Assembly: GCA_041908065.1 (NCBI GenBank)
Contig: JAYRGC010000070.1
Location: 33,180 to 97,179 of the forward strand
DNA length: 64,000 nucleotides
Reading direction: 5' to 3'
Source of the DNA: Alphaproteobacteria bacterium
GTDB lineage: Bacteria; Pseudomonadota; Alphaproteobacteria; UBA9219
Shown: positions 22,366 through 62,340 of the stretch, in pieces
Numbering within the stretch: position 1 is the stretch's first letter
Layout of the letters: each line of letters begins with the position of its first letter
Program-made: the position numbers and the translations under genes
The notes under the pieces: generated by a model
What the model was told of the DNA's origin: nothing
The model's input: the letters and a program-made list of their open reading frames with translations, nothing else
Database searches by the model: none

Positions 22366-22623
22366 GGCTCTTTCTGAAAACCGGTGGGCAAGAAATCTCT
22401 GGCTCTTACGCAAAACTGGTGGGAAAAAGAGCCGTGCGAGGTTACAGCCAAAGGCTGTCTGCGAGCCGCCACCCTTTGGTTTGGACAGCGTTAACGCTGT
22501 CGGGCGGCGAAGCAATCCAGGCCTTATGGAGCAACGGCACTGGATTGCTTCGCGTCGCAAGGGCGACGCTCGCAATGACGTCGCTTGCTATGCAAAATTA
22601 TCCACCCGTTTTGGGCAAGAGCC
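22366..22623. repeat. MITE-like element copy D, located inside the pil operon (pilP-pilQ intergenic)
   Basis: Duplicated left TIR (ggctctttctgaaaaccggtgggc / ggctcttacgcaaaactggtggg). Hairpin and cgctcgcaatgacg modules. Right TIR tccacccgttttgggcaagagcc. Confidence 0.85.
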
Positions 22624-37221: not shown

Positions 37222-37415
37222 CGGCGTTTGCGAAGTTACAGCCAAAGGCTGTCTTTGTAGGGTTACGGCCAAAGGCCGTCATGCGACGCGAAGCAATCCA
37301 TTGCCACAGGCGCAACGGCTCTGGATTGCTTCGCGGCCTGAAGAAGGCCGCTCGCAATGACAGCGCTTATTGCTGCCATTCTCTTATAAATTACTCTCCA
37401 GTTTTGCGCATAGAG
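37222..37415. repeat. MITE-like element copy F (tandem 27-bp units, hairpin, degenerate TIR)
   Basis: Contains gcgaagttacagccaaaggctgtc x2, gcgaagcaatcca...ctggattgcttcgcgg, and cgctcgcaatgacagcg. Confidence 0.75.
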
Positions 37416-37956: not shown

Positions 37957-38439
37957 GTGGCAGGAAAACTCCCCAAAGACATATCCGCCATCGTGGACGG
38001 GGTGGCATCGCGTGTGGTCGGCAACGACTGGGCGTTGTATGCCGCCCTGTTCCGGCGGTGGCGGGAGATAATCGGCGAGGAATATGCGGACGCCACCTCC
38101 CCCGTAAAACTTTCCGCGATGCCGCGCGGAACGCTTGCGTCCGGCGAGGCCGGATGCCGTCCCCCCAAAAGGCTGCATATCGCCTTGCCGCGCGGTTTGG
38201 TAACAGACATTACGTTTGCCAAGCCGCGCATTCTGGAACGCATCGCCGATTGCATCGGGCGGGAAGTCATAGCCGATCTTGTGTTGGAACCCAGACATAC
38301 AACAAAATCCAAGGCGTTTCGCGGACGCGCCGCGCCCACAGCACCTCCGGTCGAATGGCGGGAACGGATTGACCGTGAAATAGAAAACCCCGACCTGCGC
38401 GCCGCGCTGGAAAGCCTCGGCGCGTGGATGAAGGGATAA
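37957..38439 (+). CDS. DUF721/DciA-family protein
   Basis: About 160 aa with the typical alphaproteobacterial DUF721 layout. Motifs WREIIGEEYADATSPVKL and LHIALPRGLVTDITF. Confidence 0.6.
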   Translation: MAGKLPKDISAIVDGVASRVVGNDWALYAALFRRWREIIGEEYADATSPVKLSAMPRGTLASGEAGCRPPKRLHIALPRGLVTDITFAKPRILERIADCIGREVIADLVLEPRHTTKSKAFRGRAAPTAPPVEWRERIDREIENPDLRAALESLGAWMKG

Positions 38440-38444
38440 TCAGC

Positions 38445-38645
38445 AGAGCCCTTCGAAGGGAACTTACGCGGCCAACGCGCCGCAATCCCTCCTCTCCCTC
38501 TGGGAGAGGATAAGTTTGCCCGAATTTTCGCCTCCGAAAATTCGCGGCAATACCTTGGTGAGGGTTCTTTTTCAAACCCAGCTTGGGAACCCTCACCAAG
38601 CTGCGGCTAAGGATTTTCGCTAAGGGGCGAAAATCCGAGCCGCGC
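38445..38645. repeat. Composite palindromic repeat, inverted copy (reverse complement of the A+B units of the 39.06-39.70 kb array)
   Basis: cccttcgaagggaacttacgcg ... cctctccctctgggagagg ... cccgaattttcgcctccgaaaattcgcgg ... cttggtgagggttc...gaaccctcaccaag. Confidence 0.8.
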
Positions 38646-38699
38646 TATCCTCTCCCAGAGGGAGAGGAATCCCCGCCGCGCCGGTTGTTTTCAATTTTA

Positions 38700-39058
38700 T
38701 AGGGAATGATTTTGGCCTCTCGAAGGATTGTTTCGATTACGCCGTTTATATCCGCCGTCACATCAGAATTAGTGAAACGGATGGTGCGATAGCCGAGTTT
38801 GGCAAGGTATTCATCGCGGTGAAAGTCTTGTCGTTGCCGCAGATCGTGTGAGATGCCATCAAGCTCGATTATCAACTTGGCTTGTAAACAAGCAAAATCC
38901 GCCGTGTATGGAGGGATTGGATGTTGGCGGCGAAACTTCAATCCAACGGACTGATATAGTCCTCGCAACCGTTGCCAAAGCAAGGATTCCGTGCGCGGCA
39001 TTTCGGATCGTAGTTTCCGTGCTTTCTTTATATGCGGTGGATGAGGTATCGTGCGCAT
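38700..39058 (-). CDS. DUF559 (Vsr-like) endonuclease domain protein
   Basis: ESLLWQRLRG ... FRRQHPIPPYTADFACLQAKLIIELDGISH ... IRFTNSDV matches the DUF559 pattern. The ORF tail (to 38645) runs into the repeat. Confidence 0.65.
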
Positions 39059-39059
39059 A

Positions 39060-39700
39060 GCGATATTGTATTGCCCTCACCAAGGTATTGCCACGAATTT
39101 TCGAAGGCGAAAATTCGGGCAAACCTATCCTCTCCCAGAGGGAGAGGGGGGATTGCGGCACGTTGCTCGCGTAAGTTCCCTTCGACAGGCTCAGGGAACG
39201 CGGAATTTCGGTTTTATGAACAACAGGTGCAGCGGCGGCACCTCTCCCTCTGGAAGAGGATAGCGCGGCTTGGATTTTCGCTCCTTAGCGAAAATCCTTA
39301 GCCGCCGCTTGGTGAGGGTTCCCAAGTTGGGTTTATAAAAGAACCCTCACCAAGGTATTGCCGCGAATTTTCGAAGGCGAAAATTCGGGCAAACCTATCC
39401 TCTCCCAAAGGGAGAGGGGGGATTGCGGCACGTTGCTCGCGTAAGTTCCCTTCGACAGGCTCAGGGAACACGAAATTTCGGATTTATGGATAGAAGATGC
39501 GGCGGGGATTCCTCTCCCTCTGGGAGAGGATAGCGCGGCTTGGATTTTCGCCCTTTAGCGAAAATCCTTAGCCGCAGCTTGGTGAGGGTTCACAAATTGG
39601 GTTTACGCAAGAAACCCTCACCAAGGTATTGCCACGAATTTTCGAAGGCGAAAATTCGGGCAAACCTATCCTCTCCCAGAGGGAGAGGACGCACCAACTG
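39060..39700. repeat. Tandem array (about 2.5 units, period ~270 bp) of a composite palindromic repeat
   Basis: Unit A (ccctcaccaaggtattgcc.cgaattttcgaaggcgaaaattcgggcaaacctatcctctcccagagggagagg...) at about 39062, 39335 and 39615. Unit B (ctctccctctgg.agaggatagcgcggcttggattttcgc...cttggtgagggttc...gaaccctcaccaagg) between them. Confidence 0.85.
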
Positions 39701-39744
39701 CGCCTTTGGGATAGACCTCTGACTTTCGCGCATCCGCGCAAAAG

Positions 39745-39785
39745 AAAACCGCCCGCCCCTGTTGTCAGGGACGGGCGGGGTATTA
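39745..39785 (-). terminator. Rho-independent terminator downstream of the pilin-fibre fusion gene
   Basis: ccgcccgtccctgacaacaggggcgggcgg hairpin followed by TTTT on the minus strand. Confidence 0.6.
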
Positions 39786-39802: not shown

Positions 39803-41356
39803 TTAGTGCGAACCGTTGCCGATCCGGCCTTCCAGTCTTTCGATCGCCTCGGACTGTTCGCGCACTGTGCGGGACAGTTCGTCGTTGCGGGTCTTCAGCT
39901 CGTTGACAGCCCCCACCAGCGGCCCGATCAGGCCGATGTAGTTGACTGCCATGTAACCGTCAGCACCGCTCTTGACGAGTTCCGGATAGACCTTCTTCAA
40001 GTCCTGGGCGATGAGGCCGAGCTGCTTGTCGCTTGGCTTGTCGCCGTTCAGAACATAGGAAATCGGAACCAACTTACCCATCCGATCCAAGACGCCCTCC
40101 AGCGGCTTTACGCTGTGTTTGACGCGAAGATCCGATGTCCCGTACTGGTATAGAGTGCCCGCGTAGACACGCATGGCTACAAGCGAACCAGTTATACGCT
40201 GGCTCCCAAACACTTGCAAAGCTTCCACGCATTGGGGAGTAGTAGCTTCAGCTATCGCATCAATAATACAGGCATTACCACCAGCACCGTCCACTACAAG
40301 TGGTTTGAAATCGTCACTTCCCGGGACATTAGAGAGGACGACGTTCGCCGAGGGGTTCTTAAACCGCCCACGCAGCATATTCACCATCGTACCAGCTGGG
40401 GTAGGATTTCCCGCGGCATCATAGGTTGCACCATCGATGGCACCACCCTCTAGGCGTAGAGTATTTCCGACCATATGGAGGTTATAGGTATTGGCCGGAT
40501 CAGCAGGAACGGTGACAGCAGTAGCTGCGTCGCTTTTGAAAAACACACTGCGCTGCAATGTGAAGAAGTCAGGAGTATTAGACGTCCCCACCGTGCCAGC
40601 ATTGGTCGTGGTGGCATCGGCTACCCTAGCCAACCACGGGTTGGAGCTGATGGTCGTGATCCTGCCGACATAGGACATTGAGGCAACGCGGCCAACTGAA
40701 GCCTGACCACCAAGTCCATAATTTGCAACCGGAGCAGTCCACGCGCCGTAAGCACCGCAGGCGTTGTTAGGCGTAGCTCCACAGGTAGCGACGTTGTACA
40801 TGAAGCCGCCTTCGGCACCGATAAGGGCGGAAATGGATCCACCCTCGCTATCGGAAATCGGCTGTCCACCAGTCGTCATGACCATGTAAGAATAGCTGCC
40901 GTTCGCCTCTTTTCTGACTCCGATGGCAAATCCTTGGTCATATGCGTTGACCGTATTGGAATTTATGGTGTCCGGCAGATACGGACACAAGGCATCGATG
41001 CCAACTGGCCCGAACGTAGGGGGAATGTTGGTGTTGCCACCGCAAGGGGTGCCAGCCGCCCGTGGCGGGGGCAATTGAAGTGTTATCACTGTATTGGCAG
41101 GAACGGCAGTGCTAGCAACAAACCCCTGAGCCTGACCGTCGGTTCCCATATATATTTCCACCGCCGCCATTATCTGGCGATGCAAATCGGCCGAAGCCTG
41201 ACCTTGCAACTGCTGGCCGCCTCCGGAGACGAGTTTCCACAACCCGCCGAACAAAAGCGCGGAAATCGACAGGACGATCGCCAATTCCACCAGCGTGAAA
41301 CCGCGAGCATCTTGGCGTCCGCGGAGAATATTCGTTATAGCTTTGGAACCCATCAT
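39803..41356 (-). CDS. Pilin-like protein with C-terminal phage tail-fibre intramolecular chaperone (peptidase S74) domain
   Basis: N-terminus: leader then RG|FTLVELAIVLSISALLFGGLW, a prepilin peptidase motif. Middle: Gly/Thr/Ala/Asn-rich. C-terminus: SDLRVKHSVKPLEGVLDRMGKLVPISYVLNGDK...LGLIAQDLKKVYPELV...AVNYIGLIGPLVGAVNELK plus coiled-coil. GGGAGG RBS 7 nt before the ATG at 41356. Confidence 0.7.
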   Translation of the reverse strand: MMGSKAITNILRGRQDARGFTLVELAIVLSISALLFGGLWKLVSGGGQQLQGQASADLHRQIMAAVEIYMGTDGQAQGFVASTAVPANTVITLQLPPPRAAGTPCGGNTNIPPTFGPVGIDALCPYLPDTINSNTVNAYDQGFAIGVRKEANGSYSYMVMTTGGQPISDSEGGSISALIGAEGGFMYNVATCGATPNNACGAYGAWTAPVANYGLGGQASVGRVASMSYVGRITTISSNPWLARVADATTTNAGTVGTSNTPDFFTLQRSVFFKSDAATAVTVPADPANTYNLHMVGNTLRLEGGAIDGATYDAAGNPTPAGTMVNMLRGRFKNPSANVVLSNVPGSDDFKPLVVDGAGGNACIIDAIAEATTPQCVEALQVFGSQRITGSLVAMRVYAGTLYQYGTSDLRVKHSVKPLEGVLDRMGKLVPISYVLNGDKPSDKQLGLIAQDLKKVYPELVKSGADGYMAVNYIGLIGPLVGAVNELKTRNDELSRTVREQSEAIERLEGRIGNGSH

Positions 41357-41444
41357 GTTTAGCCTCCCTTGGTTTAAAACGACTTTTCTCCACTTTCCCG
41401 AACGCTTCAACACGTTCTCGGCGTCACGGCACCATTATAACACC

Positions 41445-42044
41445 TTATTTTAACACTACAACCGCCCCGTTCGTAATACCAGTGCCACTAGCCGTGCCAA
41501 AATTGAACGTCCTCTGGGTAGGAACCCACCCATTTCCTGATACGGCTCTCCCCACGTTAGTCCTTATTACTGTGCTTGTCGGCCCCATAGATATTATCCT
41601 GCCGTATGTGCCGGGCAGCATCGGTGGATTCATGTTGTTAAACTGCTTATCCAATTCCGCTACCGTGAGTCCCACGCCAGCTATCGGTTGATTGTTGTTG
41701 GCAACATTGAATGCCGTTATGGTTATAATTGTTCCTGCCACATTGCACTTAACTGTATTGATGGTGTTAACCAGCGAAAATGCCGTGCCATAAACCGCCC
41801 CTCCATCATTCAACATCGAATACATGGAATTGGGAAGACTCGCCGCCGCCGCCGTAACCCTATTACAAGTTCCTGCACCGGCGGGGTTACCGGTTGTGTC
41901 AGCAGCAATCACTTTGTTGTAGGCGTCAATAGAACTCGCCGTCAAATCCTGTCTCTCCGACATTTTGGCGGATTGCTGGAAATACGCATTGGTGTAAACA
42001 CCAATCGCGGCCAAAAGCAATATTACAAATGTAAATATATACAT
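41445..42044 (-). CDS. Hypothetical membrane-anchored Thr/Asn/Gly-rich protein (low-GC, co-oriented with the pilin-fibre gene)
   Basis: N-terminal TM MYIFTFVILLLAAIGVY. About 85 bp upstream of the pilin-fibre gene on the same strand. Confidence 0.5.
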   Translation of the reverse strand: MYIFTFVILLLAAIGVYTNAYFQQSAKMSERQDLTASSIDAYNKVIAADTTGNPAGAGTCNRVTAAAASLPNSMYSMLNDGGAVYGTAFSLVNTINTVKCNVAGTIITITAFNVANNNQPIAGVGLTVAELDKQFNNMNPPMLPGTYGRIISMGPTSTVIRTNVGRAVSGNGWVPTQRTFNFGTASGTGITNGAVVVLK

Positions 42045-42307
42045 GCTTTTCCGGCCTTTTTTCTTATGTTCACAGCGGGTTGGCACTTGCGCCCGCAGTT
42101 TCCACACTCGCCATATTATCAACAGATTGTTAATAAAGCGTAACTTTATATTATTTTGTCTAAAAAGTCACGCTTTTTTCGACTCCTCTGCGAAAAGGAT
42201 GGATAAGACCCACACGCCCGGCCTTTGGGCGGGTTTGCGCGGCGGCGGAATTGCCTTTATGCTGTCTTCTCGCCTCATAGAATTCATCGCCGAAAGGAGT
42301 TTGGGAA

Positions 42308-55135: not shown

Positions 55136-55475
55136 GGCTCTTACGTAAAACGGGTGGGTAATTTTGCACCAAACGCAACAACAATCACTGTCATCTCCCC
55201 TGTTAAAGCCACAAGCTGTCATTGCGAAGTTACAGCCAAAGGCTGTCATTGCGAGGTTACAGCCAAAGGCTGTCATGTGCGAGGTTACAGCCAAAGGCTG
55301 TCTGCGAGCCGCCACCATTTGGTTTGGACAGAGTTAAACGCTGTCAGGCGGCGAAGCAATCCAGACCTTATGGAGCAACTGCTCTGGATTGCTTCGCCGC
55401 CAAGGGGCGGCTCGCAATGACGTCGCTTGCTGTTGCGTTTGGTGCAAAATTACCCACCTGTTTTGCGTAAGAGCC
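55136..55475. repeat. MITE-like element copy G (full, 3 tandem 27-bp units)
   Basis: TIRs ggctcttacgtaaaacgggtgggta and tacccacctgttttgcgtaagagcc. gtcattgcga[a/g]gttacagccaaaggct x3. Hairpin module. Confidence 0.9.
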
Positions 55476-55525: not shown

Positions 55526-55815
55526 GGTTCTTTATCAAAACGGGTGGGTAATTTGGCCGCCAAACGCAACAACAAGCACCGTCATTGTGAAGTTACAGCC
55601 AAAGGCTGTCATTGCGAGCGGCCTTCTTCAGGTCGCGAAGCAATCCAGTGCCGTTGCTCTATGACTCTGGATTGCTTCGCCGCCTGACAGCGTTTAACTC
55701 TGTCCAAACCAAATGGTGGCGGCTCGCAATGACAGCCTTTGGCTGTAACCTCGCACATGACAGCCTTTGGCTGTGACTTCGCACATGACAGCCATTTTGG
55801 AAAGGCAATCCCTCT
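55526..55815. repeat. MITE-like element copy H (inverted relative to G; one TIR only)
   Basis: Starts with gggttctttatcaaaacgggtgggta. Modules appear in reverse-complement order. Its end abuts the mnmG stop codon. Confidence 0.8.
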
Positions 55816-60974: not shown

Positions 60975-61153
60975 AACCAATGTCATTGCGAACGTCGCCC
61001 TTGCGACGCGAAGCAATCCAGACCTTATGGAGCAACGGCACTGGATTGCTTCGCCGCCTGAAGAAGTCGGCTTGCAATGACAGCCTTTGGCCGTAACAGG
61101 GTAGATGACGGCTATTTTGGAAAGGCAATACCCACCCGTTTTTCGTAAAAGCC
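60975..61153. repeat. MITE-like element copy J (right TIR only)
   Basis: gtcattgcgaacg..., hairpin gcgaagcaatccag...ctggattgcttcgccgcc, and right TIR tacccacccgtttttcgtaaaagcc. Confidence 0.8.
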
Positions 61154-62209: not shown

Positions 62210-62340
62210 GCTATCATCTACCCTGTTACAACCAAAGACTGTCATTGCGAGCCGCCACACCTTTGGCTGTAACAGGGTAGATAACAGTGCTTGCTGATTC
62301 TATTTGCGTCCCAATTACCCGCCAATTTTGCGTAAGAGTC
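62210..62340. repeat. MITE-like element copy K (short; palindrome ctaccctgttacaaccaaag...ctttggctgtaacagggtag plus TIR tacccgccaattttgcgtaagagtc)
   Basis: gtcattgcgagccgcc core. Right TIR ends at 62340, adjacent to the uvrD stop. Confidence 0.75.

Follow-up and report, generated by a model that had tools for sequence, protein, structure and literature searches.

What keeps a small nuclease gene enclosed by copies of one structured repeat, and does its product act on that repeat? The question is raised by a DUF559 open reading frame (ORF) in a 64,000-nt stretch of an Alphaproteobacteria bacterium (UBA9219; contig JAYRGC010000070.1), which we refer to as the window, and whose numbering is used throughout. 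A first-pass annotation had placed this ORF between an inverted copy and a tandem array of a composite palindromic repeat, and our repeat analysis bore this out: the inverted copy at 38446-38689 pairs with 39219-39462 over 244 nt at 91% complementarity, and the tandem array occupies 39074-39688 with a period of 270, 2.3 copies, and 92% matches in Tandem Repeats Finder, with which a repeat finder agreed. The annotated period of about 270 bp held, its 2.5 units came down to 2.3 copies, and the inter-unit segments, given as about 42 bp, measured 93 nt and were, as had been said, variants of one another (86% identity). We put the probability at roughly one half that the locus exemplifies a partnership, selfish or domesticated, that is widespread and seems not to have been described, between DUF559 nucleases and the repeats known as BoxC, PIT, or triplex motifs (BoxC/PIT/TM).

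Upon analysis of the array, we found that its unit is one 177-nt quasi-palindromic element plus the 93-nt spacer. The first half of the element runs through hairpin X (CCTCTCCC-N3-GGGAGAGG), ATAG, hairpin H1, and CTT-GGTGAGGG-TTC; a loop of 19 to 22 nt follows, and then GAA-CCCTCACC-AAGG, hairpin H2, CTAT, and a second hairpin X. The CCTCTCCC-N3-GGGAGAGG hairpin is present seven times within 38491-39688 where chance would give none, and for five of the seven a third block, GGTGAGG(G), could be found, always on the inner side and 45 to 49 nt from the hairpin. Its form GGTGAGGG mirrors GGGAGAGG apart from a single A-to-T change. This is the plan of the BoxC/PIT/TM consensus, CCCTCNCCC-N3-6-GGGNGAGGG-N3-GGGNGAGGG (PMC4666352, Holder et al. 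2015), in which a pyrimidine block, a 3-6-nt loop, and a complementary purine block are followed by a mirror G-rich block that tolerates A to T; the published motif is likewise intergenic, often forms inverted doublets with inward third blocks, and is linked to local genome instability. The window differs from the consensus in its second loop, which is about 3 nt in the published motif and 45 to 49 nt here, where it folds into a stable 19-bp hairpin; the doublets carry two extra hairpins and are tandemly amplified together with a 93-nt spacer. The window repeat is therefore a long-loop structural variant of the BoxC/PIT/TM motif and not its canonical form, and it is not the local oddity for which it might have been taken. 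Elements of this kind are reportedly also treated by Bachellier et al. in the 1990s and by Hoyne and Maher in 2000.

Folding of the units, which had been proposed as a check, gave stable structures. As RNA, the element adopts a four-way junction (z = -9 to -12), and as single-stranded DNA the gene-proximal arm forms two hairpins that leave GGTGAGGG unpaired (-25.4 kcal/mol, z = -7.5), all of these calculations counting Watson-Crick pairing only. Since the mirror third block is kept despite the hairpin in the second loop, we think of a DNA-level structure or of recognition by a protein with three half-sites, and not of a plain RNA hairpin. A structured RNA was rejected as an explanation: Rfam 15 gave nothing at gathering score across the whole window and, in the region, only a chance microRNA match (E = 0.12), and purine-motif triplexes do not form in RNA (PMC4666352). 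A CRISPR-like array was likewise rejected, the spacers being mutual variants and cas genes absent.

To ask how general the pairing is, we chose 80 metagenomic DUF559 loci by protein motif alone, with an 11-sequence alignment as the query, and applied a three-block detector allowing at most one mismatch per block. The motif lay within about 200 nt on at least one side of the gene at 63 of 69 independent loci and on both sides at 49 of the 69. Counted by side, it was found at most 200 nt upstream in 60/75 loci and at most 220 nt downstream in 60/74. At distances above 500 nt from the gene, the background was 0.106 motifs per kb, corresponding to 0.03 expected per search window, and perfect hairpins fell from 3.9 per kb near the gene to 0.059 per kb. 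The first-pass annotation had proposed looking at DUF559 homologs elsewhere and had named, as the observation that would speak against it, a common repetitive extragenic palindrome (REP) or bacterial interspersed mosaic element (BIME) with no link to DUF559 genes; the same kind of motif flanks 63 of the 69, against 0.03 expected per search window, and the association is specific to the gene.

It is also oriented. Of the upstream motifs, 53 of 62 have their third block on the gene side, as do 52 of 63 downstream motifs. Upstream, the order is block 1, loop, block 2, gYtag, block 3, 3 to 20 nt, and ATG, and downstream a mirrored arm (block 3′, block 2′, block 1′) follows or overlaps the stop codon. 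Because the arms are mirrored on the two flanks, the gene occupies the loop of what is an inverted doublet of motifs. This is the commonest layout across loci, and several others recur, among them the inverted-plus-tandem arrangement of the window, which had been singled out as unusually clear. Lastly, the blocks covary, with 176 oriented motifs found against 45 with shuffled arms; GGGAGAGGG goes with GGGTGAGGG, GGGGAGG with GGTGGGG, and GGGGGAAG with GATGGGG. The second loop is at most 8 nt long in 120 of these 176 motifs and longer in 56. Besides the window, about 90 loci show the pairing, distributed over many bacterial phyla (Alpha-, Beta-, and Gammaproteobacteria, Cyanobacteria, Melainabacteria, Bacteroidota, and Deinococcus) and including ycjD of Escherichia coli. 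The association is thus specific, oriented, covarying, and ancient.

We also observed a mismatch within the motif itself. The type seen most often in E. coli, "A mm", has CCCTCGCCC as block 1 and GGGAGAGGG as block 2, which leaves a conserved G-A mismatch in the hairpin (table in PMC4666352), and the same mismatch recurs in six of the metagenomic loci. This may not be accidental, the partner gene being in the superfamily of the mismatch-nicking enzyme Vsr.

Individual loci illustrate the range of layouts. For instance, S. meliloti pSymB has the canonical one, with doublets on both sides of the DUF559 gene, and motifs flank the gene in Azospirillum lipoferum and Deinococcus sp. NW-56; pntAA and pntAB enclose the gene in Sphingomonas parapaucimobilis. 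In Neisseria gonorrhoeae, an NGO0050-like gene is flanked by direct, not inverted, repeats of about 100 nt, each ending in the variant CTCTCTCCC-TGT-GGGAGAGAG-CTA-GAGAGAGGG. Pseudanabaena and Picosynechococcus PCC 7002 use the variant CCCCCC / GGGGGG-CTA-GGGGGG, the stop codon TAG itself serving as the second loop. In Melainabacteria, half elements are repeated in tandem on either side of the gene, with periods of 86 and 91 nt, and at three Melainabacteria loci the gap between the arms is 337 nt and is filled almost exactly by the gene. E. coli K-12 (NC_000913.3, 1351039-1351828) has a single DUF559 gene, ycjD, with a degenerate motif at its stop codon; 3′ of it come a duplicate of about 45 nt of the gene's own 3′ end and then, about 170 nt downstream, the motif copy TMECO #9.

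The protein encoded in the window retains the conserved signature of this nuclease family. It matches Pfam PF04480 at E = 1.8e-33 (115.1 bits against a cut-off of 20.6) over profile positions 5-107 of 109 and residues 11-114. The first-pass annotation would have been contradicted by a lack of the DUF559 catalytic residues, and every invariant column of two homolog alignments (41 and 11 sequences) is kept: R17, W28, K41, F42, R43, R44, Q45, D54, F55, E65, D67, G68, H71, D78, and R81, comprising the core signature D...E-x-D-G..H and the KFRRQ motif. The closest homologs are merely 46-55% identical. By sequence, the closest solved structure is an uncharacterized N. gonorrhoeae protein (PDB 3HRL, E = 2e-16), and a Foldseek search with an AF2 model (pLDDT 85.6) returned the same entry (E = 3e-7, TM 0.83 on the target), the homing endonuclease I-Bth0305I (3R3P, E = 9.5e-5), PvuRts1I, and Vsr (1CW0/1VSR). 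The nuclease signature is intact, and the modeled fold is restriction-endonuclease-like. The last 15 or so codons are repeat sequence, the frame reading through the X hairpin at 38649-38667. NCBIfam PRK09767, the YcjD equivalog, scored 70.7 bits, under its 218-bit equivalog cut-off, and no Vsr family of Pfam or NCBIfam was reached at E ≤ 0.01. Surveys of PD-(D/E)xK enzymes name YcjD/DUF559 only as a predicted nuclease. Membership in an anti-phage defense system was rejected, PADLOC giving only a marginal DpdF match (E = 9e-4, 15 bits).

At the locus itself (Table 1), the arm upstream of the gene is canonical and the remainder less usual. Read on the gene strand, the gene-proximal half element presents the X hairpin (39147-39129), ATAG, a 19-bp hairpin, and GGTGAGGG (39081-39074), followed by 15 nt and the ATG at 39058. 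On the 3′ side, a short spacer-like stretch precedes a whole inverted doublet in place of a single arm, and the nearest motif points away from the gene, an orientation found in a minority elsewhere (11/63). The window has amplified full doublets with their 93-nt spacer, not half elements. The last 22 or so nucleotides of spacer S1 resemble the sequence directly 3′ of the DUF559 domain, and the inverted match accordingly reaches 38689. DUF559 is the only ORF of the locus, in which Pfam shows no transposase domain, and no further copy of the repeat modules occurs in the window (chance expectation 0.00).

Table 1. Features of the DUF559 locus, in window coordinates.
Feature	Position	Strand	Remarks
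Partial spacer, left half of S, inverted	38440..38490	-	80% identity to first 51 nt of spacer S1; within the inverted repeat; abuts the dciA stop codon (38437-38439)
Complete gene-less element, inverted triplex-motif doublet	38491..38667	-	Orientation opposite to right-hand array; X hairpins 38491-38509 and 38649-38667; GGTGAGGG 38557-38564; CCCTCACC 38590-38597; 94.4% and 92.7% identical to the two array elements
DUF559 / Vsr-like PD-(D/E)xK endonuclease ORF, 137 aa	38645..39058	-	Pfam PF04480; between inverted copy and tandem array
Sigma-70-like -35/-10 (GTGGCA, 18 nt, TACAAT)	39065..39094	-	Consensus match only, weak; overlaps gene-proximal arm; ends 7 nt before ATG; 2 such sites found against 1.0 expected in shuffles
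Gene-proximal half element, canonical upstream arm	39074..39147	-	Layout is the consensus of 80 other DUF559 loci; 100% identical to 39615-39688
Spacer S1, 93 nt	39148..39240	+	Between elements; S1 and S2 86% identical
Gene-less element E2, inverted doublet	39241..39417	+	X hairpins 39241-39259 and 39399-39417; GGTGAGGG 39311-39318; CCCTCACC 39344-39351
Spacer S2, 93 nt	39418..39510	+	From repeat comparison
Gene-less element E3, inverted doublet	39511..39688	+	X hairpins 39511-39529 and 39670-39688; GGTGAGGG 39581-39588; CCCTCACC 39615-39622; end of tandem array
Intrinsic terminator of neighboring pilin-like gene (39803-41413, -)	39749..39778	-	Strong; 13-bp stem, 11 G-C pairs, TTTTCTTTT tail; outer boundary of the cassette, outside the repeat

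The surroundings of the locus yielded further observations. The organism is an uncultured alphaproteobacterium. The best named HisG matches are 66-69% identical and come from Alphaproteobacteria metagenome-assembled genomes (MAGs) and Rhizomicrobium; the nearest HisG relatives, at 70-72% identity, lack synteny. Exact HisG/DciA sequences were found in the short-read Logan contigs of SRR26835459, only on short contigs that break at repeats: one break falls within the repeat, 70 nt past dciA, and another close to 37.3 kb, at copies of a 27-nt repeat. As such contigs break inside the repeat, the array is likely collapsed or missing in the short-read MAGs of relatives. Beyond the terminator, the minus-strand gene at 39803-41413 encodes 536 aa with an unusual pairing of an N-terminal type IV pilin methylation motif (N_methyl) and a C-terminal Peptidase_S74, which is an intramolecular chaperone of phage endosialidase and tail spikes; a second pilin-like ORF lies next to it at 41445-42122.

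How often does the motif occur on its own? An exact scan for CTATCCTCTCCC-N3-GGGAGAGG in one genome per species returned at least 109 loci from Alpha-, Beta-, Gamma-, and Deltaproteobacteria, Bacteroidota, Melainabacteria, Planctomycetes, Acidobacteria, Nitrospira, Verrucomicrobia, and Candidatus Uhrbacteria. Among the matches listed, CCCTCACC is nearly always upstream of the hairpin, either adjacent (short form) or about 45 nt off (long form); the long form, with an inserted hairpin of variable sequence, is found in Bauldia, Sphingomonadales, Hyphomicrobiales, and Melainabacteria. Several copies each are present in MAGs of Bauldia and Hyphomicrobiales, and in multi-copy genomes similarity begins and ends exactly at the outer hairpins of the full doublet. 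A DUF559 gene was detected by tblastn and a local hidden Markov model search at 5 of the 109 listed loci, and in those five the motif abuts the gene. The listed loci contain 67 inward-facing motif pairs that are gene-less doublets. DUF559 is the only recurrent compact cargo of inward-facing pairs among the matches listed, larger gaps holding assorted host genes.

The arrays beside DUF559 genes are dynamic. A DUF559 protein encoded between prfC and yciO in a Bacteroidota-like genome was found in identical form on 24 contigs, and the array upstream of this 100% identical protein measures 23, 137, or 230 nt, or by eye about one, three, and five motif units (loci L200-L209), the first motif overlapping the prfC stop codon. 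This variation is copy-number polymorphism in a system homologous to that of the window. The protein encoded between pntAA and pntAB was likewise identical on 15 contigs, and both proteins occur in one context each, so that there is no sign of recent transposition. Six other alphaproteobacteria were compared at the pntAA-pntAB junction, and none has a clear motif there: five have an intergenic distance of 0-30 nt, and Ancylobacter one of 134 nt. In Sphingomonas, arms and gene therefore entered together as a unit of about 450 nt. That the locus is a mobile cassette, or a homing endonuclease embedded in its own target repeats, as the first-pass annotation had suggested, is an inference: each identical protein keeps one context, and no target-site duplication is apparent at the pnt junction.

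Of 5426 complete E. coli genomes, 3378 have ycjD. We rejected the gene as a clean presence/absence case: in the ycjD-less genome that we inspected, the fabI-sapF gap holds eefRABCD and an MFS gene, with a breakpoint about 40 nt from the motif, and the alternative allele is thus a 7.5-kb eefRABCD-MFS block and not an empty doublet. A 2026 study of E. coli assemblies found ycjD in place wherever the eef operon is absent and inferred at least two independent replacements (PMC12817139). In addition, DUF559 genes are enriched 14-fold among predicted targets of programmed inversion (PMC9881135), an enrichment that inverted arms would explain.

Taken together, these observations lead us to a mechanism in which the nuclease would recognize its cognate motif, either as sequence or as a hairpin or triplex extruded on single-stranded DNA, and would nick or cut there. 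Repair or slippage at the cut sites could then amplify, delete, invert, and occasionally copy the motif and the gene, while the system as a whole would be kept mostly vertically, as REP-RAYT is, with a restriction-fold nuclease in place of the HUH transposase. We infer binding, cleavage, and any mobility from the arrangement of genes and repeats. That DUF559 is the long-missing protein partner of the BoxC/PIT/TM repeats, its cutting driving the amplification, inversion, deletion, and spread of its own motif, is a more tentative proposal than the partnership itself, and we regard it as possible and not as probable. Published work on the motifs counts 23 TMECO copies in E. coli K-12, of which five loci are inverted doublets, and related triplex motifs in more than 260 genomes, with hypervariable flanks and loci in E. 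coli; it records no mobility functions near the motifs and no associated protein, and the word "endonuclease" is absent from it (PMC4666352). We found no paper linking DUF559 to BoxC/TM, in a literature search of incomplete coverage that leaves room for an earlier description. What appears to be new here is the connection; both components were already known separately.

Several points weigh against the partnership, or against its activity. Among the matches listed, 104 of 109 motif loci lack a DUF559 gene. We know of no strand-transfer activity of a lone PD-(D/E)xK nuclease and, to our knowledge, no biochemical link exists between any DUF559 protein and the motif. Identical DUF559 proteins were sought in differing contexts and none was found on the 24 and 15 contigs, and no target-site duplication was apparent at the pnt junction, the sole junction inspected. 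The gene-less doublets beside the window gene are still unfilled and, with element copies mutually 93-94% identical, have diverged by 6-7%, which argues against recent activity. In E. coli, ycjD is found in only the share of genomes given above, and at least one genome (H30) matches only the TMECO part, so motif upkeep may not need ycjD, although blastn could miss a diverged paralog. An isolated strand of the motif forms a stable triplex in vitro; duplex DNA has not been seen to do so, nor has the motif in vivo (PMC4666352). Lastly, DUF559 proteins are 44.3% identical within and 40.8% across motif classes, a difference that none of 2000 permutations matched; this apparent link between protein clade and motif class is significant, small, and confounded by host relatedness, and we do not rely on it.

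Could the motifs simply serve the expression of the gene? They might be cis-acting modules (a ribosome-binding site or leader, a hairpin at the transcript end, an insulator) on which the nuclease does not act, the gene-less copies being remnants of decayed cassettes or the result of an unrelated spreading process. The third block, 3-20 nt before the ATG, resembles a Shine-Dalgarno sequence, a -10-like TACAAT lies between the window arm and the ATG, and hairpins at transcript 3′ ends commonly stabilize mRNA. In Sphingomonas (locus L198, 1340-1410), moreover, the terminal purine block gives the downstream pntAB a Shine-Dalgarno, GGGGAGG-aataag-ATG. Earlier work by Maher's group, insofar as it is cited in PMC4666352, found no promoter or terminator activity of PIT/TM elements. 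Such modules would also leave unexplained the conservation of the mirror third block and the three-way covariation on both strands, the tandem amplification, and the hundreds of dispersed gene-less copies in some genomes. We consider this account unlikely. As a separate observation, the terminal purine block of the downstream arm stands 6-30 nt ahead of the start codon of the host gene that follows at four loci, as in GGGGAGGaataagATG, and it could be the ribosome-binding site of that gene, making insertions within operons tolerable.

An explanation that we hold to be just as improbable is that DUF559 encodes a host enzyme of very-short-patch repair like Vsr, the repeats being independent structure-prone elements that collect in the same permissive intergenic spots. 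Such a role has been proposed for Caulobacter VsrA, a DUF559-domain protein that damages DNA in vivo and has a functional link to a cytosine methyltransferase (PMC12907096). The window protein is in the same superfamily as the E. coli and Caulobacter enzymes, its predicted fold resembles Vsr, and the identical genes in stable contexts look vertically inherited. The window protein differs from these enzymes in that it reaches no Vsr family and has no methyltransferase gene adjoining it, and we know of no report of flanking repeats for Vsr. Co-accumulation cannot give an enrichment of more than 30-fold over 0.03 per search window, and it explains neither the fixed orientation and the distance of 3-20 nt from the start codon in at least seven phyla nor why, among the matches listed, motif pairs have no recurrent cargo other than DUF559.

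Somewhat less probable still, in our estimate, is a classical free-standing homing endonuclease, for which the uninterrupted inverted doublet would be the target, the gene would be copied into its loop through homology of the arms, and gene-less doublets would be empty sites. I-Bth0305I, whose catalytic fold the model of the window protein approaches, is a known example, a selfish nuclease gene that spreads via breaks at its target. It is encoded within a group I intron of a phage and possesses additional DNA-binding regions, whereas the window gene is free-standing, has a core of about 115 residues, and carries structured repeats on its flanks. The gene-less doublets do share the polarity of gene-flanking arms, both in the E. 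coli TMECO pairs and in the 67 doublets among the matches listed, and the gene takes up nearly all of the 337-nt gap at the three Melainabacteria loci. However, the pnt junction has no doublet in its ancestral state, arms and gene arrived together, and two or three intact doublets beside the window gene are unfilled. Most genomes appear to have many doublets and few genes, identical genes are not found at multiple sites, and the arms offer only about 35 bp of homology.

An insertion sequence (IS) or miniature inverted-repeat transposable element (MITE) was also considered, as the gene is bounded by terminal inverted repeats of about 35-80 nt and gene-less versions consist of two arms and a loop. 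It was rejected: no transposase of the DDE, HUH, or serine type is present, no target-site duplication is apparent at the pnt junction, and there is one context per identical protein, identical copies not being multi-site. Finally, an ordinary genome-wide REP/BIME-type repeat flanking an unrelated ORF by chance, for which the dispersal of the motif family in other genomes (the Bauldia and Hyphomicrobiales MAGs) could be cited, is very improbable and already contradicted, given the overwhelming statistics of the DUF559 association and the absence of any other copy in the 64-kb window, whose dispersed repeat is a different 27-nt family. That family, GTTACAGCCAAAGGCTGTCATTGCGAG, is unrelated and often tandem, with 18 matches in the window against 1.5 expected (2225-2289, 22441-22455, 37235-37276, 55202-55302, 55592-55606, 55723-55793, 61083-61097, and 62225-62273), and it looks like the true REP/BIME-like repeat of the organism.

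The partnership of DUF559 with its motif is comparable to a homing cassette or to REP/REPIN-RAYT. In the latter too, short palindromic repeats, often in inverted doublets, are both dispersed and clustered, and a gene that is passed on vertically lies between its cognate repeats, with repeat and gene appearing to co-vary. RAYT is an HUH Y1 transposase whose substrates are single-stranded hairpins bearing a GTAG or CGTC tag (PMC3733652). The DUF559 system differs in having a PD-(D/E)xK nuclease and an extra mirror third block; no GTAG/CGTC tag is present at the element ends in the window, and no HUH Y1 partner, DUF559 being the only ORF.

The motifs have been known since the 1990s from hundreds of genomes and from hypervariable loci without a known function, origin, or protein partner, and DUF559 is among the commonest uncharacterized nuclease families, so that the pairing merges two puzzles into one. 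If the proposal is true, it would describe a new class of nuclease-driven repeat system in most bacterial phyla, parallel to REP-RAYT and built on a restriction-enzyme fold. It would also account for the genome instability reported at BoxC/PIT/TM motifs, for DUF559 genes as inversion targets, and for their presence at operon-replacement sites such as eefRABCD versus ycjD in E. coli, and it might point to nucleases specific for non-B DNA structures. Should DUF559 not act on the motif, the motifs would remain noteworthy as a conserved cis-module belonging to a single gene family; should it bind or cut the motif, bacterial genome biology would gain a second kind of repeat-plus-enzyme system.

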